From Escherichia phage phiSUSP1, in sequence record KT454805: DNA of 64,000 bases. One strand, given 5' to 3'. Of the stretch, positions 34,231 to 60,885 are shown one piece after another. The position numbers and the translations under genes are program-made. The notes under the pieces were generated by a model. It saw nothing but the letters and a program-made list of their open reading frames with translations. It did not search any database and was not told the DNA's origin. Position 1 is the stretch's first letter; each line of letters begins with the position of its first letter.

Positions 34231-34255
34231 GGGCTGCTTCGGCAGCCTTTTTTAT
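34231..34255 (+). terminator. rho-independent terminator
   Basis: GGGCTGC-TTCG-GCAGCC followed by TTTTTT. Confidence 0.65.
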
Positions 34256-34283
34256 TTGAAAAATGTGCAGGATGATGTATAAT
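34256..34283 (+). promoter_or_regulatory. sigma70-like promoter with TGTGCAGG spacer motif
   Basis: TTGAAA-N16-TATAAT; spacer contains TGTGCAGG, also present in the 39015-39205 repeats. Confidence 0.5.
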
Positions 34284-36990: not shown

Positions 36991-37401
36991 TTGCAAATGG
37001 GTGACTGTGCAGATGATGCAGACCGTTGGGCTGAACTCCAAGATTTAAGAGCAGAGTTTAGAGACCTCTTAGTGAGGTCTTCTAAAACAAATGTAGAGTA
37101 TACACAAAAGGATTTTCCAAAGGCTCCTTTGTATGTTATACATCAAAACAATCTAATGAACTCTGGATTAAGTTTGCAACAAAGGATGGACATTTGCCTA
37201 GCAAGGTATTACATTAATGTTGATGCCAAAGTTGGTGACTTGATTAAGTGTCCATGTTGTAACCTTGAATTTAAAAAGAAGTCATACCAACAAAAGTTTT
37301 GTGGAGTTAAGAAGAAAGGTCGCTCTAACTGTAAAGACTTCTTCTTTAATTTCACCGACTTAAAGAGAAACAGCAGAGTTAAGTTCTTCACTGGAGAGTG
37401 A
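36991..37401 (+). CDS. hypothetical protein with Cys cluster
   Basis: CPCCNLEF...CGVKKKGRSNC. Confidence 0.35.
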   Translation: MQMGDCADDADRWAELQDLRAEFRDLLVRSSKTNVEYTQKDFPKAPLYVIHQNNLMNSGLSLQQRMDICLARYYINVDAKVGDLIKCPCCNLEFKKKSYQQKFCGVKKKGRSNCKDFFFNFTDLKRNSRVKFFTGE

Positions 37402-37730: not shown

Positions 37731-37962
37731 AAAGACCAGAAAAGCCCTTAGTGGGGCAATCTTTGTAGGTCGCCAAGAAGTAATTCCTTTTGGTGCAAAG
37801 ATTTATGAAGGTTCTGTATTAGCACATAGTCATTTCAAAAATGACAATTTGAAACATTATGTATATGGGATTTACCGAAGTGAGACATTGGAAGAGTACA
37901 AACAACGCCAATATCAAGCTTACAAAGATGTATTCTTCCAAGAGGTAATCTCAAATGGCTGA
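37705..37962 (+). CDS. hypothetical small protein
   Basis: 85-aa ORF. Confidence 0.3.
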   Translation: MKAIITRCKKTRKALSGAIFVGRQEVIPFGAKIYEGSVLAHSHFKNDNLKHYVYGIYRSETLEEYKQRQYQAYKDVFFQEVISNG

Positions 37963-38155
37963 TTTCTGCACTAAGTGTTCTATTGAGATGTTTGGTAAAG
38001 ATACAGGAGACTTAAAAGGTCTCTTTACAAAAGCAGAGTTTGAGGCTGGTTCAGCAATGCCAGTAATCTGTGAAGGTTGTGGTGCTTCATGGGTAGACCA
38101 TGAAGGTAACCGAGTTAAACCCTCTGAAGACAACGAACGTTGGGAGCATTATTAA
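37955..38155 (+). CDS. small Zn-ribbon protein
   Basis: CTKCS...CEGCG. Confidence 0.35.
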   Translation: MADFCTKCSIEMFGKDTGDLKGLFTKAEFEAGSAMPVICEGCGASWVDHEGNRVKPSEDNERWEHY

Positions 38156-38156
38156 T

Positions 38157-38951
38157 ATGGGTATCGTAAAGATTATTAAAGGTGATATCTTTAAAGACTT
38201 TGATAATAAGAAGTTTGATATTATTGGTCACGGTTGTAACTGTATGAACTTAATGGGTGCAGGTATTGCAGCAACAATTGCTAAACGCTACCCAAAAGTT
38301 TATGAGACTGATGCTGAAGTTTATACCACAGTAGGTGGTCAAGACCATAAACCTAAGCATATAATGCTTGGCAATATCTCTGTAGCACGTTTTAAGCAGG
38401 GTCGAATTGCTAACCTTTACACTCAGATTATCACTGGTAAAGATGCACGATACAATGCTTTAGAAGCAGCTTTGCAGCGTCTTAACAATTACTGCAAAGT
38501 AAACCAGCTTAAGAAAGTTGGACTTCCTATGATTGGTGCAGGGATTGGTGGTCTTGACAGCATGGCTGTGCTGTCTATCATCAATCAGACCATGAAAGAT
38601 GTTGACGTTTATATGTATGTCTATGAAGATAAGATGTACAGTCAGTTGACTAGTCCGGTTACTGGTTGGGAAAACTTTAGTGAACCTCAATACTTTGATG
38701 GTGTTGCCGTGGTAGGCAAGGATAAAGTTACCCTCAAGGTGAAGCGTAATGGCAAGGTACACACTAGTTACCCTCCGGTTGAGAAGTACAATCGAAGTAA
38801 CGCTCAAGTTACCCACCCGTTACAAGGCCATTGTCACAGAGCCGTAACATTTGGTGATGATGCAAGTGTGTATATCTGTGCTGCTACAGAAGAGTTTGCA
38901 GAGGATTATACCACACATGAAAACGTTAACTATGTTGAAGCACATAACTAA
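38157..38951 (+). CDS. macrodomain protein (ADP-ribose binding/processing) with C-terminal extension
   Basis: IIKGDIF...DIIGHGCNCMNLMGAGIAATIAKRYP and GLPMIGAGIGGL resemble macro-domain Gly-rich ADPR-binding loops; GGGAG RBS before ATG 38157. Confidence 0.6.
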   Translation: MGIVKIIKGDIFKDFDNKKFDIIGHGCNCMNLMGAGIAATIAKRYPKVYETDAEVYTTVGGQDHKPKHIMLGNISVARFKQGRIANLYTQIITGKDARYNALEAALQRLNNYCKVNQLKKVGLPMIGAGIGGLDSMAVLSIINQTMKDVDVYMYVYEDKMYSQLTSPVTGWENFSEPQYFDGVAVVGKDKVTLKVKRNGKVHTSYPPVEKYNRSNAQVTHPLQGHCHRAVTFGDDASVYICAATEEFAEDYTTHENVNYVEAHN

Positions 38952-38975
38952 TAAGTTACCTAAATAGACATAGAC

Positions 38976-39023
38976 AAGCCCTCCAAAGTTTGAGTTTAAA
39001 ATCTCAGGTAAGGAGGGCTTTTT
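38976..39023 (+). terminator. rho-independent terminator (long hairpin)
   Basis: AGCCCTCC...GGAGGGCT followed by TTTTT after the macrodomain gene. Confidence 0.5.
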
Positions 39024-39205
39024 CATTTCAAATTTGTGCAGGTGAAATTGCATAGAACTCTGGACAGATTTCTTTAGCTGAACTCCAAAGAGAAAATTCA
39101 TTTCCAATTTGTGCAGGTCTAGACTCCAAAGGGCTTTTTCATTTTCAATCTGTGCAGATGCAGTTGGACTCCAAAGGGAAAATTCATTTTCAATTTGTGC
39201 AGGTA
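39015..39205 (+). repeat. four tandem degenerate ~45-bp repeats (promoter-like)
   Basis: 4 copies of ACTCCAAAGGG-(A/T)4-TTCATTTYCAATYTGTGCAGRT. Confidence 0.6.
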
Positions 39206-39375
39206 GGTAGCTATAGGAAGCAAGACCCACCACCCTCTTACTCCCCCTCCTCCCAAAAGTCAAGAGAAAAATTTGTAGAGAACTAAAAAATAATTCTTGA
39301 CTAGTTTTATGTTTTCTGTTAGTTGCGTACACGCGTTTCATTCACAACTTGCCAAAAATATTTTTAAAAATCTTG

Positions 39376-39404
39376 TTGACTCTATGAATCCAGTTTTGTA
39401 GTAT
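39376..39404 (+). promoter_or_regulatory. sigma70-like promoter
   Basis: TTGACT-N17-TAGTAT upstream of first array gene. Confidence 0.55.
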
Positions 39405-39455
39405 TTGCATCAACGGGCAAGCAAGCCCCAACAATCCTAAACTGGAGAATCTAAG

Positions 39456-39662
39456 ATGTTATATCAACGTGAATTAATGATTGTTGACAACAACAAAACA
39501 AAGAAACGCCGTTTTTATATGCTAATCTGCGACGTTTGGCAACGTATCTCAGAAAAGGATTTTGATAAATATGTTGATACGTCAATCAGGTCTGATTGTT
39601 ACTTGACAAATCACACAAGACAATTTACAAGACATACGGCAATTTATTACTATAACGTTTAA
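39456..39662 (+). CDS. small early-array protein
   Basis: preceded by conserved CAATCCTAAACTGGAGAATCTAAgATG cassette. Confidence 0.55.
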   Translation: MLYQRELMIVDNNKTKKRRFYMLICDVWQRISEKDFDKYVDTSIRSDCYLTNHTRQFTRHTAIYYYNV

Positions 39663-39674
39663 AAGGGCTTGACA

Positions 39675-39836
39675 ATGATTAAAGAAGGTTATGTAATAAA
39701 GTACAAAGGGCAAGACGGATACACAAAGTTGGGACGTGTTTTCTATCTCTATACTTCAGCGATGGGCAATGAGTGTATAGCCCTTACAAATGGCGACAAA
39801 ATAACCATGAAAGATTTTATAAAAATTATTTCATAA
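39675..39836 (+). CDS. possible 53-aa array protein
   Basis: ATG 39675 to TAA 39836 fills the gap between array genes; no conserved cassette. Confidence 0.3.
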   Translation: MIKEGYVIKYKGQDGYTKLGRVFYLYTSAMGNECIALTNGDKITMKDFIKIIS

Positions 39837-39841
39837 AGTGC

Positions 39842-39877
39842 TTTACATGGGGTTTAAAAGGTAGTATCTTAAGCCCC
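39842..39877 (+). promoter_or_regulatory. promoter-hairpin cassette (class A)
   Basis: TTTACA-N17-TATCTT with GGGG...CCCC stem. Confidence 0.5.
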
Positions 39878-39924
39878 AGATAAAGAGCTTTGCTAACCAA
39901 TAGTCCTAAACTGGAGAATCTAAA

Positions 39925-40305
39925 ATGAAATATCGTGCGCCTAAATTTATCAACAAAGAAAACTTTCGTGATGCTCTGGAAAAATCCATGAATGAGCAGT
40001 TCAAAGGTAAAATCATTGTTGTTCACGCTTACAATTTTAAGTATGATGTAAATGGTAACAAGATAAACCACTACACCGCTACAATGTTAGATGGTACACT
40101 CTCAGGAGAAAAGGCTATTATAAATGCACTGGCTGGACGTGGTAAAACGTTAATCCGTTGCGATAAGCGCCGCTATCAAGGAAGTGCTTATGGTTATGAG
40201 GATGCAATCTATCATCTTGATAACATGGGTTACAACGTGGTAAAAGCTGGAGTATCTCAAATGATTGGTAGTGATGGCTACGTAACAATCTTTGAAATTA
40301 ACTAA
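39925..40305 (+). CDS. small early-array protein
   Basis: conserved CCTAAACTGGAGAATCTAAAATG initiation cassette. Confidence 0.6.
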   Translation: MKYRAPKFINKENFRDALEKSMNEQFKGKIIVVHAYNFKYDVNGNKINHYTATMLDGTLSGEKAIINALAGRGKTLIRCDKRRYQGSAYGYEDAIYHLDNMGYNVVKAGVSQMIGSDGYVTIFEIN

Positions 40306-40313
40306 TAAAGTGC

Positions 40314-40349
40314 TTTACATGGGGTTTATAGTTCGATAGGATAAGCCCC
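40314..40349 (+). promoter_or_regulatory. promoter-hairpin cassette (class A)
   Basis: TTTACA-N17-TAGGAT with GGGG...CCCC stem. Confidence 0.5.
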
Positions 40350-40391
40350 AGATAAAGAACTTTATCACTAACCTAAACTGGAGTTTTAAAA

Positions 40392-40649
40392 ATGGCTACT
40401 ATCAAAAATATTGTAATTACTGCAAAGTCCCGTGATGACGCTCGCGCAACTGCTAAAAAATTAAATGGCAAAGTGGTTGACAACGGAAAAGAATCTGCTG
40501 TAAGATGGGGTGTAAAGACAGACAAGAAATTAACCCTTAAACATAGTTCTTACAACATGTTTAAAGGTGTGAAAACTATCGGTAACACTAATGTATTCAC
40601 AAAGCAAGGTTACAAAATGCACTTATCATTAACTGACAATTTAATCTGA
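40392..40649 (+). CDS. small early-array protein
   Basis: cassette variant CTAAACTGGAGTTTTAAAAATG. Confidence 0.55.
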   Translation: MATIKNIVITAKSRDDARATAKKLNGKVVDNGKESAVRWGVKTDKKLTLKHSSYNMFKGVKTIGNTNVFTKQGYKMHLSLTDNLI

Positions 40650-40657
40650 TAAAGTAC

Positions 40658-40693
40658 TTTACATGGGGTTTATAAGTTGTTAGTATAAGCCCC
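40658..40693 (+). promoter_or_regulatory. promoter-hairpin cassette (class A)
   Basis: TTTACA-N17-TAGTAT with GGGG...CCCC stem. Confidence 0.5.
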
Positions 40694-40740
40694 AGATAAA
40701 GAGCTATATTAACCAATAGTCCTAAACTGGAGATTCTAAA

Positions 40741-41253
40741 ATGAAAACCACTGATGCTATTTTTGAAGTTGTAAAAGAAAAATATACCATTATTTATGCA
40801 GCAGTTAATTTCTATGAGCCTTCCCATTGTGTGGATAACTGGCAATTTACTGATGAGCATAAAGGAGGGATTACAATCAAAGTTAAGAATGCAGAACGTA
40901 ACAGCTACAAATATGCAATCCCTACGCATTACCCACTTTCACAGCTTGCCAGTGACTACGCAAAACAGGGAAGGGATAACCCATCATTGGAAGCTTACAA
41001 GAGCTTACAGGATGAGCTAGAAAGGGATTTAGAAGCTAATAGTTATCTCTTGTATGCCTCAGTAATTGACGCTGAAGGGAACACGGTTTTAAATAGTTTT
41101 TCTCTTGCGTACTCTTTTGATTGGTGCTATCTTGACGGGGAAGATTTAGAGACACGTTTAGAAGAGGAAGTGTCGAACTCTGACGGGGAGACTGAAGTGA
41201 TGGAACGTTTAGAAGCCTTGAAAGATTCAGTTATGAATATCTTTAATATCTAA
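40741..41253 (+). CDS. small early-array protein (acidic)
   Basis: conserved initiation cassette. Confidence 0.6.
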   Translation: MKTTDAIFEVVKEKYTIIYAAVNFYEPSHCVDNWQFTDEHKGGITIKVKNAERNSYKYAIPTHYPLSQLASDYAKQGRDNPSLEAYKSLQDELERDLEANSYLLYASVIDAEGNTVLNSFSLAYSFDWCYLDGEDLETRLEEEVSNSDGETEVMERLEALKDSVMNIFNI

Positions 41254-41259
41254 AAGTGC

Positions 41260-41294
41260 TTTACATGGGGTTATCAAGTTGATAAGATAGCCCC
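41260..41294 (+). promoter_or_regulatory. promoter-hairpin cassette (class A)
   Basis: TTTACA-N17-TAAGAT with GGGG...CCCC stem. Confidence 0.5.
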
Positions 41295-41336
41295 AGATAA
41301 AGAGCTTTACCAACAATCCTAAACTGGAGAATCAAA

Positions 41337-41633
41337 ATGTTTATTTCCGCAAACGTTAGAACTAAATTAAGCCAACTATTAAACAACATTCAATTCATTG
41401 AATCTATGCGCCGTCAATCTGAAGCTGTAGAGTGGTATCATGGAAAGATTAACAAAAAAGAAGTAATAGTTTGTGTATGGAACTTTTGTAAAGAATACAA
41501 AAAGCCGTTGCTTCAGGTTGATATCTATGATAACACTAACAAATCATCAATTAAAACCACTAGAGATATGATTGATTCATACGAAATTAGTCACACTGGG
41601 AAACTATTTCACAAAGGTGTAAACAAATGTTAA
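41337..41633 (+). CDS. small early-array protein
   Basis: conserved initiation cassette. Confidence 0.6.
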   Translation: MFISANVRTKLSQLLNNIQFIESMRRQSEAVEWYHGKINKKEVIVCVWNFCKEYKKPLLQVDIYDNTNKSSIKTTRDMIDSYEISHTGKLFHKGVNKC

Positions 41634-41974
41634 TCACATATACAGCTATTTTTATCTCTATTGTGGCGCTCTATAAAGCCTTTAAAGCGCATCAGTTAGC
41701 TAATAAGGCAATCACAAGGGATTTAAAAATAAACCTTGTAAGGGGCTTTATAGAGCGTTTAAGCTTGGAACAATTGAAACGTTTAGAGATGAGCTTTCGA
41801 TTTAAAGCGGAGACATACAGAATTGACAACATTCTAGCAGGTGATTTTAAGCTAATTAGTGATTATGACATACTGTTAGAAGCAATTCAAGACATAAATT
41901 TAAAAGATTATTACATCGTAATAGCTCAAGAAATTAATAAAAAAGAGCTTGCAATGAAAAACCAAAACAAGTAA
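41627..41974 (+). CDS. small membrane protein
   Basis: N-terminal TM ITYTAIFISIVALY; start overlaps upstream stop. Confidence 0.45.
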   Translation: MLITYTAIFISIVALYKAFKAHQLANKAITRDLKINLVRGFIERLSLEQLKRLEMSFRFKAETYRIDNILAGDFKLISDYDILLEAIQDINLKDYYIVIAQEINKKELAMKNQNK

Positions 41975-42040
41975 AGTATTTATCAACGGGGAGGGAAAAC
42001 TCCCCCCACTAAGCAAAATTCCTAAACTGGAGAATCTAAA

Positions 42041-42313
42041 ATGTATACAACTAACAATGGTAATACCCTTAATGTAACTCTAAAGCACTATGTAGACGGT
42101 GTATTAAACTTTGAAGACTTGCAAGCGGAGCAACATTTATTAGATTGGCAAGTAGCAGGACTGCAAAAAACTGCTACGGGGTACGGTACAAAAATTCCTA
42201 CATCTTGGAAAGTACGCTATTTAGGAAAGTTACGAAGAATTTATCAAGATGTTTATAGCAATAGTGGTGTAAGTTACATTATTGTTAACGGTAAAAAGTT
42301 GTATTTAGTCTAA
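42041..42313 (+). CDS. small early-array protein
   Basis: conserved initiation cassette after GGGGAGGG...CCCCCC hairpin. Confidence 0.6.
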   Translation: MYTTNNGNTLNVTLKHYVDGVLNFEDLQAEQHLLDWQVAGLQKTATGYGTKIPTSWKVRYLGKLRRIYQDVYSNSGVSYIIVNGKKLYLV

Positions 42314-42321
42314 TAAATTGC

Positions 42322-42356
42322 TTTACATGGGGTTATCAGGTTGATAAGATAGCCCC
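42322..42356 (+). promoter_or_regulatory. promoter-hairpin cassette (class A)
   Basis: TTTACA-N17-TAAGAT with GGGG...CCCC stem. Confidence 0.5.
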
Positions 42357-42401
42357 AGATAAAGAGATTCATCTGACACTAACCTAAACTGGAGAATCAA
42401 A

Positions 42402-42809
42402 ATGACTACTATTAATCATAAAGAAGTTGCAATTCTGAAAGCACGTTTGACTATTAACCGTATCAACATTGTCACATCAGCAGCACCAGATGAAACATTG
42501 CATAATATTATTGGTAAAATTCAGGGTGTAGTAGTAGATGTAAAACAGATTAAAGAAGCTTTACAAGACGTAGCAGCGGGGGCTATAATTGACGGCGCAC
42601 AATATGAAATGCAGGAAATGCTTTCAAAATCTAGAGTAATGAATAAAGAATTAGACTTGAAAATGTTTCGATTTGCTGTTAAAGTATGGCTATGTGTTGA
42701 TTTTGATGCTAACTTTGCAATAGCTGATTTCTTTGCTACATGGTTACAGCGTAATTTACCATCAGAAAAATTTCGTGAAATTTGCGATGCAATTTATTCA
42801 GAAATTTGA
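42402..42809 (+). CDS. small early-array protein
   Basis: conserved initiation cassette. Confidence 0.6.
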   Translation: MTTINHKEVAILKARLTINRINIVTSAAPDETLHNIIGKIQGVVVDVKQIKEALQDVAAGAIIDGAQYEMQEMLSKSRVMNKELDLKMFRFAVKVWLCVDFDANFAIADFFATWLQRNLPSEKFREICDAIYSEI

Positions 42810-42893
42810 TTGACACTGCAAAAACATAGTAGTAAAGTACTCATCAACGGGGCAAGATAAAGCCCCAACAATCCTAAACTGGAGAATCTAAAA

Positions 42894-43142
42894 ATGTTTA
42901 ATATGCTGAATATCCCTGATACCTGCCGACTGTTAACACAACTTGAAAATCTTGGCAAGCCCTTTTTATATCATATGCCAGATAACACGGCAAAAACTTA
43001 CAGCTATATTGTGAATCGTTTCACGGCTTATGGTTCAAAATATGGTTACAATGTCAAGACTCAAAAAGTGACTTTGTTCACAAGTATTGAAGAGTTGCCG
43101 ACTGTTGCAGTTAAACTAATCTTTACAAAGAAAACTAAATAA
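42894..43142 (+). CDS. small early-array protein
   Basis: conserved initiation cassette (class B upstream hairpin). Confidence 0.6.
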   Translation: MFNMLNIPDTCRLLTQLENLGKPFLYHMPDNTAKTYSYIVNRFTAYGSKYGYNVKTQKVTLFTSIEELPTVAVKLIFTKKTK

Positions 43143-43147
43143 AGTCC

Positions 43148-43184
43148 TTTACATGGGGTTTATAGTTAGATAAGATAAGCCCCA
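43148..43184 (+). promoter_or_regulatory. promoter-hairpin cassette (class A)
   Basis: TTTACA-N17-TAAGAT with GGGG...CCCC stem. Confidence 0.5.
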
Positions 43185-43226
43185 GATAAAGAGCTTTACC
43201 AACAATCCTAAACTGGAGAATCTAAA

Positions 43227-43784
43227 ATGAAATGCTTTCATGGTACTACTCAAGAAAACTTTTTAAACCTTATCAATGGCGGTGAAAAACCATCAGGAGC
43301 TTGGAATTGCTCTGATATGGATGGATGTTTTTACGTGTATCCGGTTAATAAGTTCTATGATGTAGAAGACTTAGACGACGAACAAATCACTAGCGAGGGT
43401 ATTAGAAATGCACTTGATAGTGCAAGCATTACAGCAGCATATCAAATGAAATCACAAAAAATTGTCATCTTGGAACTTGACATTCCAGAGGAAGATTTAC
43501 AAGATGACTGGAGTTGTGAAAATATGAGCGACGTTGCAAGCTTTACAGAATACTTTGATAAAGAATGGATTAAAAAGATTTACACAACTGAATTTAACGG
43601 GATGTATGCACCTTTCTTTGTGCCTAACCTGAATAACAGGAATTTAGGATACATACCGGATGAGTTACGCAACATTGCAGCAATGATACAGCGTAGCGAT
43701 GAAATGAATAATGTGTATATTGATATCTTTGAAACTATGCAGACATACGTTTCAGAAACGTCTATAAGCGATTTAACAGCATAA
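43227..43784 (+). CDS. small early-array protein
   Basis: conserved initiation cassette. Confidence 0.6.
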   Translation: MKCFHGTTQENFLNLINGGEKPSGAWNCSDMDGCFYVYPVNKFYDVEDLDDEQITSEGIRNALDSASITAAYQMKSQKIVILELDIPEEDLQDDWSCENMSDVASFTEYFDKEWIKKIYTTEFNGMYAPFFVPNLNNRNLGYIPDELRNIAAMIQRSDEMNNVYIDIFETMQTYVSETSISDLTA

Positions 43785-43847
43785 ACTATAGAATCATACC
43801 AGATAACCATAAAAGCCCCGCATAGGGGCTTACAGGAGCTTTAAAAG

Positions 43848-44078
43848 ATGCTTACAACAATCTATCTTATCCTTTCCTTGTCTAATGGTGCTGAATGGAA
43901 CTTCAAAGGGCTTGAAGAGTTCACAGGAAGCAAGGAAAACGCCATTGCAGCTTGTCAGATAGCAAGACTTGACTATCCTGCCAGCGATGATATACAATGC
44001 TACTTCAAGACAGAAGATGAGGAATCAATCTATTTTGATAGTATAGATGGTCAATATGAGATTCTTATAGAAAAATAG
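43848..44078 (+). CDS. small early-array protein
   Basis: own AGGAG RBS after AGCCCCGCATAGGGGCT hairpin. Confidence 0.5.
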   Translation: MLTTIYLILSLSNGAEWNFKGLEEFTGSKENAIAACQIARLDYPASDDIQCYFKTEDEESIYFDSIDGQYEILIEK

Positions 44079-44088
44079 TTGACACTGA

Positions 44089-44117
44089 AAAACAAAACAA
44101 GTAAAGTACTCATCAAC
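44089..44117 (+). promoter_or_regulatory. sigma70-like promoter (class B cassette)
   Basis: TTGACA-N17-TAAAGT followed by CATCAACGGG...CCC hairpin and conserved initiation cassette. Confidence 0.45.
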
Positions 44118-44155
44118 GGGAAGCAATCCCACAATCCTAAACTGGAGAATCTAAA

Positions 44156-44377
44156 ATGTTGCAAATCTTGAATGTAAAAACCATTGATTTTAAAGCCTTA
44201 AATGTTCGCCGTACCTATTTACAACCATTCAATAATCCTGTTAGAATATCCAACGATGACGCTAAAAAGTTAATTGATGAGATTCTAGCTAATGGCGGTT
44301 ATCTGGCAAGCCATAACCAATATGATGATGAGGATGGAAGCCTGATAAATGAATTTACATATTATTACTACAAATAA
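44156..44377 (+). CDS. small early-array protein
   Basis: conserved initiation cassette. Confidence 0.6.
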   Translation: MLQILNVKTIDFKALNVRRTYLQPFNNPVRISNDDAKKLIDEILANGGYLASHNQYDDEDGSLINEFTYYYYK

Positions 44378-44389
44378 CTAATAAAGTGC

Positions 44390-44425
44390 TTTACATGGGG
44401 TTTAAAAGGTAGTATCTTAAGCCCC
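44390..44425 (+). promoter_or_regulatory. promoter-hairpin cassette (class A)
   Basis: TTTACA-N17-TATCTT; identical to the copy at 39842. Confidence 0.5.
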
Positions 44426-44469
44426 AGATAAAGAGCTTTACCAACAATCCTAAACTGGAGAATCTAAAA

Positions 44470-44811
44470 ATGGCATATGTAACAATTATCACTGATAAAG
44501 AAAATTCGTCTTGGTCAACTCAGGTTAGCGACAAAATGACTCCTATGCAGTGTCTCAAGTACTTTGAACAGTGGAATCGTGGAGAGGATGTTAGCCCCTT
44601 TCAAGTGATGCAAGTTGTACACGTTGACAATGACGGCAACAAAACAACCCTTAACACTGAATACTATGCAAGCCGTTTTGAAACTAGAGCGGAGACAATG
44701 AAGCAATTACGTGAGAAGGGTTATAGTCACATAGCGGGATTAATCTGGAATGACTTACTAAAACAGCAGCGTATGACATATGTTAAGCCAGAAAAAATCT
44801 TTATAAGCTAA
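44470..44811 (+). CDS. small early-array protein
   Basis: conserved initiation cassette. Confidence 0.6.
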   Translation: MAYVTIITDKENSSWSTQVSDKMTPMQCLKYFEQWNRGEDVSPFQVMQVVHVDNDGNKTTLNTEYYASRFETRAETMKQLREKGYSHIAGLIWNDLLKQQRMTYVKPEKIFIS

Positions 44812-44843
44812 TCAACAACTTATAAAATTCTTTGAAAAAACTG

Positions 44844-44872
44844 TTGACATTGCCCCTTGACAATAGTACATT
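44844..44872 (+). promoter_or_regulatory. sigma70-like promoter
   Basis: TTGACA-N17-TACATT (second TTGACA in spacer). Confidence 0.5.
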
Positions 44873-45008
44873 TGTTCGAGGGGGTTTATCTAAAAGGATT
44901 CACTTAAAAGATTCTTTATAGATAAGCCAAAAATTACTTGCAAGACTCTAAGCAATTCTGTATAGTTCTATTCAAGCGATAAAACAATCCTAAACTGGAG
45001 AATATAAG

Positions 45009-45536
45009 ATGAATAAGTTCAATGCAATTAACGCTATCCGCTCAAAAGATGTAATGAAAAAACCTGTAAAAGACACTTTCGAATTTACCCTTAAAAACAA
45101 GTTGTTTGCAGTTATCACAAAAGGGGAAGATAAAAAGTATTACATTCATCGCCCCAATCAGAAAACGGTAACCACTAACAACTTTATGCAAGCCGTGGCG
45201 GTCATTCTGCCAGATTATATGGCTATTGTCGCAGAGATTCACGAAATGGCTATAAAAGCAACTAAAAACGAGTTAAATCGTTACAAAATGGCTTATGAGC
45301 GCTCTATTAAGTCTCACAATCTTTTTATTGCAATTCATCATACAGGGATGTATGCTATGGGAACGGGTAACCAACAATCCCCGCTCTATGATGTAGAAAA
45401 CATCTTTACAAGTGACTACCCGACAACTAAATTTAAAATTACGTTAGGGGAAGCATTAACTAGAGGGATTAAGCTGTACGAACAATCTTTAAAAAACTTA
45501 GAAAATTCACTTGACGAAATCATCAGAACTCTATAA
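45009..45536 (+). CDS. small early-array protein
   Basis: cassette variant CAATCCTAAACTGGAGAATATAAGATG. Confidence 0.6.
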   Translation: MNKFNAINAIRSKDVMKKPVKDTFEFTLKNKLFAVITKGEDKKYYIHRPNQKTVTTNNFMQAVAVILPDYMAIVAEIHEMAIKATKNELNRYKMAYERSIKSHNLFIAIHHTGMYAMGTGNQQSPLYDVENIFTSDYPTTKFKITLGEALTRGIKLYEQSLKNLENSLDEIIRTL

Positions 45537-45597
45537 AGTACTCATCAACGGGGAGGGAATGACCTTCCCCCAACAATCCTAAACTGGAGACTAGAAA

Positions 45598-45861
45598 ATG
45601 AATAATCAAGAAATCACTATCATGTTACAGATTGGTACTGACAAAGAAGATATCCAACTTTGCAAACGTATCGAAAGTGATTGGTTTAATGGTGAAATCA
45701 TCGCGGAGTCTTATGAGGTAGTTGGATTCATGAATGGTGAAATCGTAAGCCATTTTGGTTTAACTAAATCTGAAGCAATTGTAAAGTATGACGTTTTATC
45801 TTGTGAGATTCTTACAAAATACAACGAAAAAAGACTTGCAACATACGCCGCAATGAATTAA
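45598..45861 (+). CDS. small early-array protein
   Basis: conserved cassette after GGGGAGGGAATGACCTTCCCCC hairpin. Confidence 0.6.
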   Translation: MNNQEITIMLQIGTDKEDIQLCKRIESDWFNGEIIAESYEVVGFMNGEIVSHFGLTKSEAIVKYDVLSCEILTKYNEKRLATYAAMN

Positions 45862-45924
45862 TATTACTTTCAACGGGGAGGGAGACTTCCCCACTAACCC
45901 AAAATCCTAAACTGGAGATTCAAA

Positions 45925-46176
45925 ATGGCTACTATCCGCGCAACTGTTAACAACTTCGGCTTCAACGTACTAGATGTTAAATTTGATATGGTTGGCACTG
46001 GTGATGCTTTCGGTATGGTTGAAATGTGTCTGAAGGCAACTATTCAGGACTATAACCCATCAGAACCATTCTGGAAGGAAACTAAACAGGAAGTCTTAAA
46101 AGATGGGGTAACGTCCTACTATTGGGGTGATTCTCTTATCACACTTTACTACCAAAAATTCGGTGTGATTAACTAA
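45925..46176 (+). CDS. small early-array protein
   Basis: conserved cassette after GGGGAGGGAGACTTCCCC hairpin. Confidence 0.6.
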   Translation: MATIRATVNNFGFNVLDVKFDMVGTGDAFGMVEMCLKATIQDYNPSEPFWKETKQEVLKDGVTSYYWGDSLITLYYQKFGVIN

Positions 46177-46217
46177 CAGGACGCCGCAACGGGGCAAATA
46201 GCCCCAGACACCTTTAC

Positions 46218-46240
46218 AGCCCCTTAAATGGGGCTTTTCT
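46218..46240 (+). terminator. rho-independent terminator
   Basis: AGCCCC-TTAAAT-GGGGCT followed by TTTTCT; ends plus-strand array. Confidence 0.6.
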
Positions 46241-47830
46241 ACGTCTATGAGATAGAACTCTATCGAATCCTATATACAGAACCCTTCCTAGAATCTTAGA
46301 GATTCATCTAACAAGTTAGACTCATACCAGACATTTAGAACAATAACTCTATAGCTTACTCTATATCTTCTTATCAAGTCAACTACAATATAAGCCCATA
46401 ACCCGAAAGGGAAGGGCAATCTCTAAAACGCTCTATAACGCTCTATACGGGCTTATCATCTCATCTTAAGCAATCATATTAATCCATTCTTAAAAGCCCT
46501 TTATAGAGCTTCCTAGAGCCTTAAAAGAATCTTATAAGGGAGTAAGCTTATAGGCTGGATAGAATCTTGTGAATAATTAAAAAGGGGCTTGATAGTTACT
46601 TAAAAGTATGTTATGGAGGTTTAAAAGAGCCTTAAAAGTAACGTAAAAGTTAGCCCCCTTTACATTCTCTTAACAAAATCTTAACAAATGCTACATAGTT
46701 ATGCTTATTAGAGACTTGTTAGGGTCTTGTTAAATCCTTGTTAGAGGTATGTTAAAAGCTTGTTAGACTCTTTGAAGTCCCTGTATAAGCCCCTAGAAAG
46801 GGCTATAAAGAGCTGTACAGGTAGTTGGGGTGTAGTTACTAGGGAGAAGCTTAGAAGAGGCTATATAGAGCTATACAGAGCTTTTAAGAGGGCTTTTAAG
46901 AGAATCACTAAGAAGGGGAAGGGAACTATAGACCAGAGATAGTGACCATGTTAATAGCTTGTTAAAAAGGTTTAGAACTTATTAGAGCCTTGTTAATTAT
47001 CTTAACAAAATAACTCTTAAGATTTAACTATTTAGCAACTTATAAGCAACTTGTTAGACTCTTGTAAGCAATGTTACAGACTTGTTAAACCCTTGTTAGT
47101 TATGTTAAGGGTCTGTTAAGAACTTTGAAGAGATGTTAAGAGCTTGAGAGAGTTGTTAAGTGATTGTTAATGATATTTTAAGATTTTGCAAAGGGGATGT
47201 TACAGGGCTGTTTAGGGCTACCAAGCAGATATACATCCTATGTAGATATTTTTGAGTTACTCTCAAGACCCTAAAAAATGACTTGACAGTTCTATTTTAT
47301 AAAAATTTATGAGTTTAGATATTTCTAAACGAAATACTAAAGAATTGCATAAATATCTATATAGTATTCTGTATAAAACAGGTAAATACAGGCTTATAAG
47401 ATACCTTGTTAACACCGTGTTAGACCTTGTAGGATAAGCCTTAGAAGGTGATACCTGTTTAGTTAGTTAAAACAGTCTATATAGAGGATTAGTAGAACCT
47501 AGTGAATACCCTATAGAGAGTCATATCGTTAACATAGAGATTAAGATGGGTATAGGGGCTTCTAAGGGGATAGGAAGAGATGGTTAAGGTGATTGTATAG
47601 GTTTAGAAGAGAGATGCTTAGAGGGCTATTTAGAAGGGTTATACAGAGAGCTATAGAGACTCACTGTTAAGGGACTAAGAGACTATATAGCACTATATAA
47701 CACTATATAACTATATAGAGAGTAAGATTAAGTAGGCTGTTAAGAAGGGTAGATATTTTATCACATGATATGGTGACCCAAGATGAACGGAGTGAATCTA
47801 AATTTTATAAAAATTATAAATTTCGTAAAT
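46241..47830. repeat. non-coding iteron-rich region
   Basis: no credible ORF; more than ten TTGTTA(A/G) copies plus ATGTTA/CTGTTA variants, often ~11 bp apart, and repeated CTATAnAGAG motifs. Confidence 0.7.
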
Positions 47831-47840
47831 TTTACTCAAT

Positions 47841-47862
47841 AAAAAGCCCCATTGAAGGGGCT
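47841..47862 (-). terminator. rho-independent terminator
   Basis: minus-strand reading AGCCCC-TTCAAT-GGGGC followed by TTTTT, just after stop of ORF 47871..48485. Confidence 0.6.
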
Positions 47863-47870
47863 GTATAGTT

Positions 47871-48485
47871 TTACATCACTTCTTTGAGCATTGCATTCAA
47901 TGAGGTCTTAGTCGTTTGGAAGAAGTGTGTGAACCCATTGTGACGTTCTCTTACCTGAAGCATTATCTGGTCACCCTTAATTGGATGTGAACTGATATGG
48001 TATTCATTCAGGTTCAAAACTGCACTTCCACCTTCAAAGATGTGTCTCAGGTATGTAGCATCAATAAATTCTTCTTTACCTGTGACCTTGATGCAAACAC
48101 CCTTATTAACTCGTTTAGGATTAATATCTTCCATCACAAGCATTTGTTGTCCACCAAGTGAAACCATAGAGAACTCTTGACGGTTCTGCTGCTTAACATA
48201 CATCTCAAGTTTCTGCAAAGTGTCTTTATAGAACGGATAAGAATCTTTAACAAAGATACCTTTTAGCTGCTCTTTACCATCTACAAACTCTCTTGAATGC
48301 CTTAGTGACATTACAATTTGTTGAAGCTGGTCTCTGCACTCAGGTGATAAGTAGTTATCAATATCTTCCAAACTTAGTACCAAGTACTTTCTCTCTAACT
48401 CAAATTCTCTTTTTCTCATCTCAAAACCCTTCAAAGTGTTTACAGTGAACTTAACCATTTCCCAATACTGTTCAGTAACTATCAA
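47871..48485 (-). CDS. hypothetical protein
   Basis: 204-aa ORF, last gene of minus-strand block. Confidence 0.45.
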   Translation of the reverse strand: MIVTEQYWEMVKFTVNTLKGFEMRKREFELERKYLVLSLEDIDNYLSPECRDQLQQIVMSLRHSREFVDGKEQLKGIFVKDSYPFYKDTLQKLEMYVKQQNRQEFSMVSLGGQQMLVMEDINPKRVNKGVCIKVTGKEEFIDATYLRHIFEGGSAVLNLNEYHISSHPIKGDQIMLQVRERHNGFTHFFQTTKTSLNAMLKEVM

Positions 48486-57848: not shown

Positions 57849-57925
57849 CTCCGTTTAGCTCAGTTTGGTAGAGTGCGCCGTTTGGGGCGGTGAGGTCGAA
57901 GGTTCAATCCCTTCAACGGAGACCA
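57849..57925 (+). tRNA. tRNA-Pro (anticodon TGG)
   Basis: acceptor CTCCGTT/AACGGAG, T-arm GGTTCAATCC, loop TTTGGGG; CCA encoded. Confidence 0.75.
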
Positions 57926-57932
57926 AATTAAT

Positions 57933-58010
57933 GTTCCAGTAGACAAATTGGTAAAGTCACCACACTTTCAATGTGGAGTTTTGAGGGTTCAAGTCCCTTC
58001 TGGAACGCCA
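57933..58010 (+). tRNA. tRNA-Glu (anticodon TTC)
   Basis: acceptor GTTCCAG/CTGGAAC, T-arm GAGGGTTCAAGTCCCTT, loop CTTTCAA. Confidence 0.75.
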
Positions 58011-58017
58011 AATTTGA

Positions 58018-58082
58018 CAGAAGACCAAGTACAGCAAATAACTTTACTTTTCGCGCATAGAAAACTTAAAAGTTTGGTCTGG
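58018..58082 (+). ncRNA. inverted-repeat-bounded inter-tRNA element E1
   Basis: CAGAAGACCAA...TTGGTCTGG, 7-bp closing stem AGACCAA/TTGGTCT. Confidence 0.4.
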
Positions 58083-58093
58083 TCATAAAAGTT

Positions 58094-58170
58094 CGCGGGT
58101 ATAGAGAAAGGGCGTCTCACATGTCTCATTAGCATGGTATCGGCAGGTTCGACTCCTGCACCCGCCTCCA
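58094..58170 (+). tRNA. tRNA-Met/Ile2 (anticodon CAT)
   Basis: T-arm GCAGGTTCGACTCCTGC, loop CTCATTA, 3' ACCCGCC-T-CCA; 5' boundary uncertain. Confidence 0.6.
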
Positions 58171-58176
58171 AATTTG

Positions 58177-58239
58177 CAGAAGACCGTTTACAGCAATCTC
58201 AAAAATTTTTATCGGAAAAAATGAAAAGATACGGTCTGG
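58177..58239 (+). ncRNA. inverted-repeat-bounded inter-tRNA element E2
   Basis: CAGAAGACCGT...ACGGTCTGG, 7-bp closing stem. Confidence 0.4.
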
Positions 58240-58252
58240 CAATACTAAACAT

Positions 58253-58329
58253 GGTGAGGAAGCACATAAGGCATGTGCGGTCGGCTGTTAACCGAATGGT
58301 ATAGGGTTCGAATCCCTAACTCACCGCCA
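58253..58329 (+). tRNA. tRNA-Asn (anticodon GTT)
   Basis: D-arm GCAC-ATAAGGCAT-GTGC, loop CTGTTAA, T-arm TAGGGTTCGAATCCCTA, CCA encoded. Confidence 0.75.
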
Positions 58330-58399
58330 AGATTTGGGAGAGAAGCGTAATGCTCACCGATTTGTAAGGTGTAAGTCCTTAGCCTGAATAGAATAAAAT

Positions 58400-58487
58400 G
58401 CGTCGTTATCCCGTAGATGGAAGCGGTGGTGACTGTAAATCACTTGTCATTATGACTCGGTAGGTTCGACTCCTTCACGGCGCACCA
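58400..58487 (+). tRNA. tRNA-Tyr (anticodon GTA), class II
   Basis: 88 nt with long variable arm; loop CTGTAAA; acceptor GCGTCGT/ACGGCGC. Confidence 0.7.
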
Positions 58488-58493
58488 AATAAA

Positions 58494-58571
58494 GGTTATG
58501 TAGTTTAATCTGGTTAAAATACCTCACTGTCACTGAGGAAGATGAGGGTTCAAATCCCTTCGTAACCGCCA
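58494..58571 (+). tRNA. tRNA-Asp (anticodon GTC)
   Basis: anticodon arm CCTCA-CTGTCAC-TGAGG; T-arm GAGGGTTCAAATCCCTT. Confidence 0.75.
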
Positions 58572-58632
58572 ATTTTGAGAGGGCTTTCTAGCCCCTCCCT
58601 TAAAGAGTTCTTACGAGTATTCTTTAAAGGAG

Positions 58633-58709
58633 CAGAAGACCAAATTCAGCAAGCCAACTTAAAAAATTTCAAGCCAATTTAATTTTGAAAAATTTAAAAC
58701 TTGGTCTGG
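58633..58709 (+). ncRNA. inverted-repeat-bounded inter-tRNA element E3
   Basis: CAGAAGACCAA...TTGGTCTGG closing stem. Confidence 0.4.
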
Positions 58710-58722
58710 CTCAACAAATTTA

Positions 58723-58849
58723 CAGAAGACCGTTTACAGCAAGTATAAAACAATCTATTTCTCTGGTAAAGAAAAGGAGAAGGTTCGATTCCTTCACACG
58801 TTACGGCGTGTTGGTGTAATGGTAGCACTTAAGATAAACAACGGTCTGG
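58723..58849 (+). ncRNA. structured element E4 with tRNA-like T-arm (Y-RNA-like candidate)
   Basis: closing stem AGACCGT/ACGGTCT; internal hairpins GAAGG-TTCGATT-CCTTC (T-arm-like), ACACG-TTACGG-CGTGT, GTGT-AATGGTA-GCAC (D-arm-like); no anticodon arm. Confidence 0.4.
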
Positions 58850-58998
58850 TAATCCTCTTTGCAGTGACTTATGGAGCTAAATGTCGTCCCATGAGTGCCG
58901 ATGAATTTCCTTAGCATGATTCTAGATTAGCTTAATAGGAAATGACTCTACAAACCCTTTAGCAAGGTTTGCGTAGGTTACTGCAAAGATGATTTAAT

Positions 58999-59074
58999 GG
59001 GGGTGTAGCAGAAAGGTGATGCGGCAGACTTTTAATCTGACAGGCGACGGGTTCGAATCCCTCCACTCCCACCA
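58999..59074 (+). tRNA. tRNA-Lys (anticodon TTT)
   Basis: acceptor GGGGGTG/CACTCCC, loop CTTTTAA, T-arm GACGGGTTCGAATCCC. Confidence 0.7.
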
Positions 59075-59078
59075 ATAT

Positions 59079-59155
59079 GGTTCAGTCGCAGATAAGGTAA
59101 TGCAAGGGTTTCATAAGCCCTATGAATGTGGGTTCGAATCCCATCTGAACCTCCA
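59079..59155 (+). tRNA. tRNA-Met/Ile2 (anticodon CAT), second copy
   Basis: acceptor GGTTCAG/CTGAACC, loop TTCATAA, T-arm GTGGGTTCGAATCCCAT. Confidence 0.7.
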
Positions 59156-59156
59156 A

Positions 59157-59232
59157 GCTGGTATAGTTAAGAAGGTTATAACACTCCCCTGATAAGGGAA
59201 CATCGGTGGTTCGATTCCACCTACCAGTACCA
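59157..59232 (+). tRNA. tRNA-Ile (anticodon GAT)
   Basis: loop CTGATAA, T-arm GGTGGTTCGATTCCACC, acceptor GCTGGTA/TACCAGT. Confidence 0.7.
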
Positions 59233-59247
59233 ATTTCAATAAAGTTG

Positions 59248-59276
59248 TTGACATGGAGATGTGACTACTTTATAGT
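59248..59276 (+). promoter_or_regulatory. sigma70-like promoter inside tRNA cluster
   Basis: TTGACA-N17-TATAGT. Confidence 0.6.
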
Positions 59277-59509
59277 AGCCTTAGTTTTCGTTAGCGTAGC
59301 GTCTATTTTGCAAACTTAAAAATAAATGCAAACGATAATGCTTTTCTGGCAGTAGCTTAATAGGCTAAACACCAGTGAGGTCTTCCAATTCCTCATCAAA
59401 GAATTTGGCGTACTCGCCCACGGTATGATTAATAAGGTGGGCAACATTCTAAAGGGTATCCCGTATGGGGCTTGGCTTAAATGCAATGAGTACCCTTTAA
59501 AATGTTAAT

Positions 59510-59586
59510 GCACCCTTAGTTCAATTGGATAGAGCAAGTGCCTTCTAAGCACTGAGTTACAGGTTCGAGTCCTGTAGGGTGTGCCA
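59510..59586 (+). tRNA. tRNA-Arg (anticodon TCT)
   Basis: anticodon arm AGTGC-CTTCTAA-GCACT, T-arm ACAGGTTCGAGTCCTGT. Confidence 0.75.
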
Positions 59587-59593
59587 GTTTAAT

Positions 59594-59715
59594 GGTCAAG
59601 ACAACACTAGTAAGCCATCTGGATACATGTTAACAGATGTACGAAAGTCGGAAAGTTGCTGAAGGTTAGCTACCTTCGAGAGTAAGTAGGTTCGACTCCT
59701 ACCTTGACTGCCAAA
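59594..59715 (+). ncRNA. atypical tRNA-like element (possible pseudogene or insertion-containing tRNA)
   Basis: perfect T-arm GTAGG-TTCGACT-CCTAC and 3' CTTGACT-G-CCA pairing with GGTCAAG ~120 nt upstream; no canonical D-arm. Confidence 0.3.
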
Positions 59716-59849
59716 TAGTTAGCAGATTACTTAGACGACCTTAGCGGGTCTCCGTGTTGATTCAGATGAGTCAACTTCATAAGGAGGTGGTCTGTATCTC
59801 ATGTTTTCCAGAACATGTAAATAATCTGAGAAGAGGCTTGACAGTGTTG

Positions 59850-59878
59850 TGACAATACGGTAAGCTTCGAATTATAGT
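59850..59878 (+). promoter_or_regulatory. sigma70-like promoter
   Basis: TGACAA-N17-TATAGT upstream of tRNA-Trp and HNH gene. Confidence 0.5.
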
Positions 59879-59884
59879 GTTAAT

Positions 59885-60879: not shown

Positions 60880-60885
60880 AATATT

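Follow-up and report, generated by a model that had tools for sequence, protein, structure and literature searches.

What is the function of a short array of direct repeats that stands between two gene modules of Escherichia phage phiSUSP1? An initial annotation of the locus described four degenerate tandem repeats that resemble a promoter elsewhere in the window and proposed that the two may share a regulator-binding motif. We analysed the locus in a stretch of 64,000 nucleotides from sequence record KT454805 (the window), which represents a Felix O1-like myovirus of the Ounavirinae (Mooglevirus). Its closest relative is Citrobacter phage vB_CbrM_HP1 (Mooglevirus; HP1 in the following) with 95% identity over 2.5 kb. 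Phages like Felix O1 count among the classic typing phages of Salmonella, and their relatives are isolated for biocontrol and phage therapy.

The repeat array and its place in the genome

The array opens a non-coding region of 504 bp (38952-39455). The left neighbour is a gene for a macro-domain protein (38100-38951; Pfam Macro), and to the right the start codon at 39456 begins the first of a long array of small genes. The genes to the left comprise rIIA, rIIB and those for an SLT-like protein, polynucleotide kinase, the spanins and the macro protein. On the other side, approximately 16 small genes follow, at least six of which have a sigma-70-like promoter match just upstream, and a pre-start cassette, TCCTAAACTGGAG, is common to twelve sites. 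The array stands at the border between the rIIA/rIIB-lysis-macro module and a terminal block of ~7-8 kb of small early genes; this is also a compositional boundary, at which the G+C content falls from ~0.39 to 0.35.

The position of the locus relative to the genome end can be read from HP1, the record of which has an annotated direct terminal repeat of 570 bp with identical copies at both ends. This repeat maps to 46653-47222 and, thus, the genome terminus falls within the window. Between the array and the right terminal repeat, on the inner side of the latter, there are ~7.4 kb, which places the array at 8-9% of the genome from the right end, and on the basis of this distance we rejected a packaging site or terminal repeat as an explanation for the array. 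Terminal repeats of 570-610 bp have been confirmed for the Felix O1-like group (PMC4837284, PMC8303462). Some IMG/VR contigs break inside the array region; these breaks are probably assembly breakpoints of circularised contigs and no evidence for DNA ends.

At its left end, the array is fused to the terminator of the macro-domain gene, in such a way that the T-tract of copy 1 is the U-tract of the terminator (Table 1). The terminator hairpin is present in the MFE as well as the centroid fold and was also found as an inverted repeat. In Felix O1, the homologous terminator is t13, which follows gene 13 (PMC3185647, Table 2). Because Felix O1 gene 13 and several downstream small genes belong to the 5-min class by RT-PCR (PMC3185647), the array lies within early-transcribed DNA and not at the border between early and late genes.

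The four copies stand on the same strand and have the pattern TCATTT(T)-N6/7-GTGCAG(G/A)T. Allowing up to three mismatches, the 22-mer TTCATTTTCAATTTGTGCAGGT matches these four copies only in the 64 kb, while 0.01 matches are expected. Tandem Repeats Finder identified an array of period 45 (39082-39202) with 2.9 copies, 77% matches and a score of 143, and a repeat search returned a 43-nt family with four copies (39001-39043, 39076-39118, 39117-39159 and 39162-39204) at spacings of 75, 41 and 45 bp. The four tandem repeats of ~45 bp described initially are, therefore, real as copies, but the tandem arrangement at ~41-45 bp is limited to copies 2-4, and copy 1 lies 75 bp upstream. Likewise, ACTCCAAAG stands before copies 2-4 only, whereas copy 1 comes after GGAGGGCT, which forms the 3' arm of the terminator hairpin; the 5' arm of this hairpin contains a CCTCCAAAG. 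The 8-mer TGTGCAGG, which had been singled out as the motif, is not significant by itself (5 matches versus 1.98 expected, with 6 of 100 shuffled sequences reaching 5), and copy 3 has TGTGCAGA where it would stand. Instead, the conserved unit is bipartite, (C/T)ATTT-N7-GTGCAG. On the plus strand of the window, this pattern is found in the four array copies and at 34254 and nowhere else, and ATTT-N7-GTGCAG has one match on the minus strand, which we put down to chance. The region also contains a partial inverted copy of the 3' half of the unit, at which relatives have TCTGTAGAGA or TCTGTACAGA. In other genera, copy 4 is preceded by GGTCGGGCAAG, as are units of the Erwinia phage described below.

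Table 1. Features of the array region and of the related rIIB site, with positions in the window
Feature	Position	Strand	Description
rIIB terminator followed by promoter	34231..34283	+	Promoter TTGAAA-16-TATAAT; only other ATTT-N7-GTGCAG (34254-34271)
Antisense ORF, 173 aa, not a gene	38820..39341	-	Open frame differs between lineages; stops in several relatives
Intrinsic terminator of macro-domain gene	38976..39023	+	Arms AGCCCTCC (38977-38984) and GGAGGGCT (39012-39019), then T-tract
Repeat copy 1, core	39022..39043	+	TTCATTTCAAATTTGTGCAGGT; kept in relatives
Partial inverted copy of unit 3' half	39059..39070	-	TCTGGACAGATT, complement of AATCTGTGCAGA with one mismatch; inverted repeat, 92% complementary
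Repeat copy 2	39082..39118	+	ACTCCAAAGAGAAAA, then core TTCATTTCCAATTTGTGCAGGT (39097-39118); missing in lineage L014/L025
Repeat copy 3	39123..39159	+	ACTCCAAAGGGCTTT, then core TTCATTTTCAATCTGTGCAGAT (39138-39159)
Repeat copy 4	39168..39204	+	ACTCCAAAGGGAAAA, then core TTCATTTTCAATTTGTGCAGGT (39183-39204)
G-free polypyrimidine tract	39226..39254	+	CCCACCACCCTCTTACTCCCCCTCCTCCC; invariant core CTCTTACTCCCC
Candidate leftward promoter	39235..39263	-	-35 TTGACT (39263 to 39258), 17-bp spacer, -10 TAAGAG (39240 to 39235)
Rightward promoter P1	39297..39325	+	TTGACT, 17-bp spacer, TAGTTG, TGn just upstream; A/T-rich stretch before; read from sequence
Rightward promoter P2, first small gene	39376..39404	+	TTGACT-17-TAGTAT; promoter scan; invariant TAGTATTTGCATCA

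Conservation of the half-sites among relatives

The intergenic region was found in 254 phage records, 181 of which cover at least 80% of the region at 75-97% identity. In alignments of seven and then 13 distinct relatives (Mooglevirus, Suspvirus and Felixounavirus), four copies are present except in one lineage that has three, the half-sites are invariant and the spacers are variable. Across 29 distinct arrays from coli, Salmonella, Citrobacter and Shigella phages with a total of 112 units, ATTT and GTGCAG are fixed except for one GTGTAG, while the seven bases between the two half-sites vary freely; the entropy is 0.24-0.29 bits in the cores versus 0.64-0.91 bits between cores, and these invariance statistics are partly inflated by the use of an exact 21-nt anchor and of motif patterns to retrieve loci. 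Loci retrieved by BLAST or by protein similarity have the same half-site invariance. Because the spacers differ freely between copies in one and the same genome, it is selection on the half-sites, rather than gene conversion, that keeps the copies alike.

The same architecture is found in much more distant phages. In Erwinia phage SunLIRen (Kolesnikvirus), the macro protein of which is 36% identical to that of the window, four TCATTTT-N6-GTGCAT units (GGACAGCTTTTTCATTTTCAATTTGTGCATAGG and three variants) with a spacing of 37, 37 and 39 bp directly follow the macro terminator and are themselves followed by a C-rich tract and a pair of back-to-back promoters. A third lineage, represented by the IMG/VR contig L071 with a macro protein of 38% identity, has four to five units of the type AAAATTCATTTTAAAAACGTGCATAGG in the same place. 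When 1.6 kb of the window were compared with SunLIRen, significant nucleotide matches were limited to 91 nt within the macro gene (74% identity) and to the repeat units, which with 19/19 and 23/24 identities are better matched than the macro gene. Relatives carry 3-5 units, and the spacing between units depends on the lineage (37-39 bp versus 39-45 and 73-77 bp), so that strict helical phasing is not conserved. The initial annotation had named absence of the repeats from close relatives as an outcome that would speak against its reading; they are, on the contrary, the best-conserved DNA in the region, even between genera.

The half-sites differ between lineages in one respect. The last base of half-site 2 is G in 112/112 units of the coli type, whereas L071 and three Kolesnikvirus sequences have a T at this position throughout; their half-site 2 is GTGCAT in every unit but one (GTGGAT in L071). 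Such a concerted, lineage-specific G/T change is the pattern that would be expected from a co-evolving trans-factor, and GTGCAG behaves as a selected motif of the kind that a protein would bind, as had been suggested for it. The motif is also highly restricted: the complete 89-kb genome of HP1 has five sites in all, four in the array and one at a promoter, and SunLIRen has none outside the array. A scan of metagenomes with a two-unit GTGCAT pattern returned unrelated tandem repeats only. About half of the matches to a looser motif pattern in IMG/VR are unrelated coding repeats.

Promoters, reading frames and RNA structure

Downstream of the array, the entropy of the intergenic region is lowest at the G-free polypyrimidine tract, with 36/41 positions invariant over 39235-39275, and a tract rich in C comes after the SunLIRen array, too. 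The candidate leftward promoter was read by eye and is not called by the promoter scan, position 6 of its -10 element being a G. Both of its hexamers are invariant in 13 relatives and its spacer varies in sequence at constant length. At the equivalent place, SunLIRen has a back-to-back pair consisting of TTGACG-18-TATACT on the minus strand and TTGACT-17-TATATT on the plus strand. In the window, the rightward partner is P1, in which TTGAC and an upstream A-tract are invariant; the two TTGACT hexamers stand on opposite strands 33 bp apart, with A/T-rich DNA between them. Two invariant A/T-rich blocks, 39264-39296 and 39354-39371, also fit UP-like elements of P1 and P2. From this arrangement, the candidate leftward promoter would likely fire antisense through the array.

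The only site with the unit pattern outside the array is at the promoter that follows the rIIB terminator. The resemblance of the repeats to this promoter (34256-34283), which had been noted initially, is borne out and goes beyond what had been described, because copy 1 matches the terminator tail plus promoter at 21/25 positions in the same register after the T-run, and we read it as suggesting that copy 1 and the rIIB terminator/promoter descend from a common terminator-plus-promoter cassette. In a divergent lineage, the rIIB site has kept ATTT and GTGCAG while five of the seven spacer bases have changed. The search for the motif in promoter spacers that the initial annotation called for finds, on the plus strand of the window, this one promoter site (34254) but no others outside the array, and a single extra genomic match is about what is expected by chance for the 10-base pattern alone. 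The case for a regulator shared between the array and this promoter is, accordingly, a weak one: the site is GTGTAG in L021 despite an intact array, SunLIRen lacks such a site yet has a four-copy array, and in HP1 this promoter site is the only one outside the array. In the coli/Salmonella lineages, the same factor may nevertheless bind the rIIB promoter too.

Resemblance to a promoter is not matched by complete promoter elements in the units themselves. The promoter reading, in which the units are four tandem promoters for the small-gene array served by sigma-70 or by a phage-modified RNA polymerase, is in line with the likeness of the units to the strong promoter at 34256-34283 over its -35 element and spacer, and in some lineages weak hexamers resembling TATAG(A/G) stand 9-11 bp behind GTGCAG in copies 1 and 4. 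However, the promoter scan finds no sigma-70-like site on the plus strand over 38581-39376, and a -10 element at the distance seen at 34278-34283 is absent from all units in the window as well as from those in SunLIRen. By eye, the hexamers 7-11 bp past GTGCAG are TGCATA, CTCCAA, TGGACT and GCTATA/TATAGG; those that are -10-like lack the final T and are not conserved. With five sites only in the 89-kb genome of HP1, we also rejected a general phage promoter class, and the Felix O1 genome paper reports neither a phage RNA polymerase nor an apparent polymerase-specificity factor for this group (PMC3185647). We, therefore, regard tandem promoters as highly unlikely. The same likeness could alternatively mean that the units are decayed terminator-plus-promoter cassettes without function, kept as substrates for recombination beside a hyper-variable gene block. 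Along these lines, copy 1 and the rIIB terminator/promoter are alike in the same register as described, each unit resembles the 3' half of a terminator (G/C-rich, T5 or A5, CATTTT) followed by a -35-like TTCAAT, and the gene content downstream varies among relatives while the intergenic region is conserved. But neutral half-sites would not stay intact in 3-5 copies while the neighbouring protein diverges to 36-38% identity, and neither fixed half-sites with free spacers nor the concerted lineage-specific G/T change is expected of neutral sequence, making this explanation very unlikely. Finally, the function could reside in the antisense strand, as a small protein (the ORFs of PHROG 15689) or as a non-coding RNA of ~250 nt with four motifs, expressed from the leftward promoter. 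The conserved back-to-back arrangement points this promoter into the array, a minus-strand frame with …LHKLKM… has no stop across at least copies 4 and 3 in any lineage, SunLIRen among them, and annotators have called ORFs here that form a PHROG. Against a protein, composition alone leaves a unit without stops in two of its three frames, lineages differ in the frame that is used and several have stops, spacings of 41, 37, 73, 75 and 77 bp break the frame between units, and the candidate starts have no Shine-Dalgarno sequence. Moreover, synonymous variation is absent at CTG-CAC and AAA-ATG in more than 110 units, placing the constraint on nucleotides and not on codons. Against an RNA, the fold is no better than that of shuffled sequence. 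Overall, an antisense product is quite unlikely.

These results agree with the suspicion of the initial annotation that the antisense ORF at 38820-39341 is an artefact, since its frame is not conserved and the unit spacings are not multiples of 3. The ORF matches PHROG 15689 over the repeat array only, and we rejected the encoded protein on the frame analysis despite this match. In the GenBank records that we inspected, either nothing or a hypothetical antisense protein is annotated at the array; several of these records and one PHROG family, thus, appear to describe a protein that does not exist. A structured RNA or riboswitch was likewise rejected, based on fold z-scores of 0.02 (plus strand) and 0.20 (minus strand), which are no better than for shuffled sequences, and on a search of Rfam that gave no match better than E = 0.5. 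Because copy 1 straddles the termination point, its GTGCAG would lie beyond the end of terminated transcripts.

Possible functions of the array and related systems

As the best of the readings considered, we suggest that the repeats are quite possibly a cis-acting DNA element, an iteron-like array of bipartite sites in the same orientation for a lineage-specific and probably phage-encoded DNA-binding protein with a role in transcriptional insulation or control. In this model, each site consists of half-site 1, (C/T)ATTT(T), then 6-7 variable A/T-rich bases, and half-site 2, GTGCA(G/T). From the conservation pattern, we infer that the array would be bound by a sequence-specific protein, the specificity of which differs between phage lineages; because of this difference, the binder would most likely be encoded by the phage. 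The bound protein would form a nucleoprotein block at the module border, and this block would stop transcripts that read through from the left as well as antisense transcripts that start at the leftward promoter. A further effect may be a modulation of the early promoters next to the array and, for the coli/Salmonella lineages, of the promoter after rIIB through its related site. We favor a role as insulator or control element because of the position of the array, which starts at the terminator of the rIIA/rIIB-lysis-macro module, ends ~30 bp from the back-to-back promoter pair and ~25 bp downstream of the predicted leftward start, and adjoins divergent promoters in the lineages of both the window and SunLIRen. 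Several observations argue against this role: helical phasing is not strictly kept between lineages, the sites are 100-300 bp upstream of the rightward promoters, which is odd for a simple repressor or activator, and the -10 element of the leftward promoter, TAAGAG, is non-canonical.

As for the putative binder, scans of the neighbouring small proteins against Pfam and PHROG gave nothing significant. Candidates encoded nearby are a Cys-rich basic protein of 136 aa (36991-37401) and a CxxC…CxxC protein of 66 aa (37955-38155). The consensus sequences of IHF, CRP, LexA, Fis and sigma-54, which we checked by eye, do not fit the unit.

Sites of this kind could also serve replication or DNA entry. 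If the array were a lytic origin of replication, the units would be iterons for a phage initiator, and the polypurine/polypyrimidine tract and A/T-rich stretches would be an R-loop and unwinding region activated by the strong flanking promoters. Three to five bipartite sites of 18-22 bp in the same orientation do have the iteron format that is classically known from lambda ori and from origins of plasmids; the genome has no second locus of this kind; behind the array stand a strand-asymmetric tract and A/T-rich blocks such as AAAATATTTTTAAAA, all of them invariant; and the leftward promoter in the Erwinia phage would give a G-rich RNA over a C-rich template. Yet, the cumulative GC skew in HP1 rises steadily through 81 kb, has no inflection at the array and follows gene orientation, and the skew minimum, together with divergent early promoters, adjoins the DNA polymerase and helicase genes ~30 kb away. 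No initiator gene is adjacent, the neighbours being the macro-domain protein and small proteins without a significant Pfam match, the A/T-rich blocks may be explained more simply as UP-like promoter elements, and a unit spacing of 37-75 bp is wider than that of typical contiguous iterons. We, therefore, consider an origin unlikely. Binding by a host protein is a further alternative, in which DnaA boxes or sites for other host factors at the terminal early block would anchor the entering DNA or titrate DnaA, in analogy to the injection stop of T5. Here, the minus strand of the Erwinia-phage units, CTATGCACA and TTATGCACG, matches TTATNCACA at 7/8 positions, and the deviating GTGGAT unit of L071 differs at the N position of the box. 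The location would fit as well: in the window, ~7.4 kb separate the array from the terminal repeat, so that it stands at 8-9% of the genome from the right end, the SunLIRen array lies ~7 kb before the equivalent non-coding zone, and T5-like phages have conserved non-coding repeats that contain DnaA boxes at 7.9% (bioRxiv 10.1101/866236). By contrast, the units of the window and of all coli/Salmonella phages, ACCTGCACA, ATCTGCACA or GTCTGCACG, match at 5-6/8 positions only. In the window, ACCTGCACA (as in copies 1, 2 and 4) has three and ATCTGCACA (copy 3) two mismatches to TTATNCACA; with 770 window sites at two mismatches, copy 3 is at background level and the other copies are weaker still, leaving the Erwinia lineage as the only one with boxes at no more than one mismatch. 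DnaA specificity is essentially identical in Escherichia and Erwinia and, therefore, a site for host DnaA should not differ systematically between lineages. Moreover, the T5 model is itself an in-silico proposal, and we know of no report of two-step entry in a phage of the Felix O1 type. A host-factor site is, thus, highly doubtful. Also by analogy to T5, the array might be a boundary signal of staged genome entry. The right-terminal block of ~8 kb of small early genes would then enter and be expressed first, after which DNA transfer or processing would pause at the array, bound by a membrane-associated host or phage protein that could be DnaA in the Erwinia lineage; we regard this as extremely unlikely.

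Irrespective of its function, the array is a deeply conserved, unannotated non-coding element that over long divergence is better kept than a neighbouring gene. The terminator and direct repeats elsewhere are listed in the Felix O1 genome paper, but the array itself is missing there (PMC3185647). Our literature searches found no description of the element and no transcriptome, 5'-end, promoter-map, footprint or genetic data for Ounavirinae, including Felix O1 and Ea21-4, and the text of a gene-essentiality preprint on Bas63 holds no result for the intergenic region of the array. Thus, the motif, its architecture and the depth of its conservation appear to be undescribed, while repeated sites for a protein in the control region of a phage are, as a kind of element, familiar. 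The 20-bp motif provides a handle with which the putative binder could be fished out, and it can be mutated to test control of the terminal early-gene block.

Several known systems share parts of this design. The PeSL elements of T4-type phages, reportedly described by Arbiol et al. in 2010, are mobile promoter/stem-loop cassettes duplicated around small early genes in a variable region. Similarly, the array units look as if they derive from a terminator-plus-promoter cassette, and the small-gene array carries such cassettes. However, PeSLs are functional promoters dispersed between genes, whereas the array units form a tandem cluster, have no -10 element and are conserved in another part of the sequence, i.e. 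the would-be promoter spacer. The iss region of T5 (bioRxiv 10.1101/866236) also consists of conserved non-coding repeats that are better kept than the neighbouring genes, and the array shares with it a position where a terminal block of small early genes has its inner border, ~8% from the genome end, as well as, in the Erwinia lineage only, DnaA-box-like motifs. The T5 region spans 1.2-1.7 kb, is rich in inverted repeats and palindromes, has paired DnaA boxes and is located inside a terminal repeat of 10 kb (bioRxiv 10.1101/866236). The array, by contrast, comprises 200 bp of direct repeats outside a terminal repeat of ~570 bp, and its units in coli-infecting phages are poor DnaA boxes.

The arrays at lambda ori and in theta-replicating plasmids (F RepE, R6K pi and P1 RepA) are built from contiguous iterons of ~22 bp. 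As in these systems, the array described here has 3-5 direct repeats in one orientation, each an asymmetric 18-22-bp site with two halves, and is unique in the genome and located beside A/T-rich DNA and promoters. It differs in that the units are 37-75 bp apart, their sequence is unrelated, no initiator gene is adjacent, and neither skew nor position points to an origin; the minus strand has a passing resemblance to the RepE iteron, which presumably falls in the variable spacer. In phi29, four p4 sites lie between promoters A2c/A2b and A3, and these sites, which overlap the promoters under their control, are inverted repeats. We know of no regulator in the Ounavirinae. While the array differs from the p4 sites in consisting of direct repeats to one side of the promoter pair and in starting at a terminator, the two have in common that clustered sites for one small phage protein, putative in the case of the array, stand beside back-to-back promoters, that the cluster marks a border between temporal or functional modules, and that the sites are rich in A/T-tracts and bendable.

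Proteins and sequence flanking the array

Two small conserved proteins are encoded in the operon immediately 5' of the array of four bipartite ATTT-N7-GTGCAG-type repeat units (see the table). Neither the 136-aa nor the 66-aa protein had a significant match in Pfam. Both are possible nucleic-acid binders for the array. On the other side, the array is followed by an invariant G-free tract. A candidate leftward promoter, a minus-strand pair of hexamers, has this tract as its spacer. This tract includes CCCTCTTAC, which is one base different from boxA of lambda nutR (CGCTCTTAC). In the divergent relative L071 (IMG/VR 3300045988_063805), approximately nine TTAACA copies are present within A/T-rich sequence directly after the repeat array (reverse strand 5620-5770).

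Features in the window
Feature	Coordinates	Strand	Description
136-aa protein	36991-37401		C-terminus Cys-rich and very basic (KCPCCNLEFKKKSYQQKFCGVKKKGRSNCKD)
66-aa protein	37955-38155		CxxC…CxxC
ORF over the array	38820-39341	minus	Match to PHROG 15689 (78 aa)
G-free tract	39226-39254		Includes CCCTCTTAC
Small-gene cassettes	39435-45917		TCCTAAACTGGAG, 12 copies; TTTACA-17-TAnGAT with AAGCCCC hairpin
Non-coding region	45600-47900		2.3 kb; short tandem repeat units, e.g. CTTGTTAGAGA, ACTATATAGC, CTCTATAACG, TGTTAAGAACTTGAGAGAGA
Counterpart of HP1 terminal repeat	46653-47222		89.5% identity
tRNA genes	57849-63578	plus	25 genes, clustered

Gene calls and locus limits at the array

Mordin, mistaenkt, Silverhawkium and UAB_Phi87, the last with two neighboring ORFs, carry annotated ORFs of 51-117 aa at the array region, and the match to PHROG 15689 is confined to the repeat array as translated from the minus strand. 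In all likelihood, these ORFs are gene-calling artifacts that were then carried into a protein family. Several loci taken from Felix O1-like IMG/VR metagenome contigs of roughly 89 kb (L016, L018, L020 and L027; sample 3300045988) begin or end no more than 25-77 bp from the conserved post-array tract. For one contig, the locus limit was confirmed as the contig end, with a terminal overlap of 55 bp. These limits probably reflect breaks in assembly where the DNA is conserved or repeated, rather than real genome ends.

The genome end and the small-gene block

The non-coding region is dense in short tandem repeats and includes the counterpart of the annotated 570-bp direct terminal repeat of the complete relative HP1 (Citrobacter phage vB_CbrM_HP1). 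The position of this counterpart inside the window indicates that the window spans the physical genome end.

In the small-gene block, each copy of TCCTAAACTGGAG lies directly 5' of a small-gene start codon. TTTACA-17-TAnGAT promoters with an AAGCCCC hairpin are also found at several small genes. These units are common promoter and translation-initiation cassettes of the small genes. A tRNA cluster such as that in the window is typical of Felix O1-like phages. The small-gene cassettes resemble the 57-bp repeats reported in Felix O1, and they are reminiscent of the PeSL cassettes of T4.
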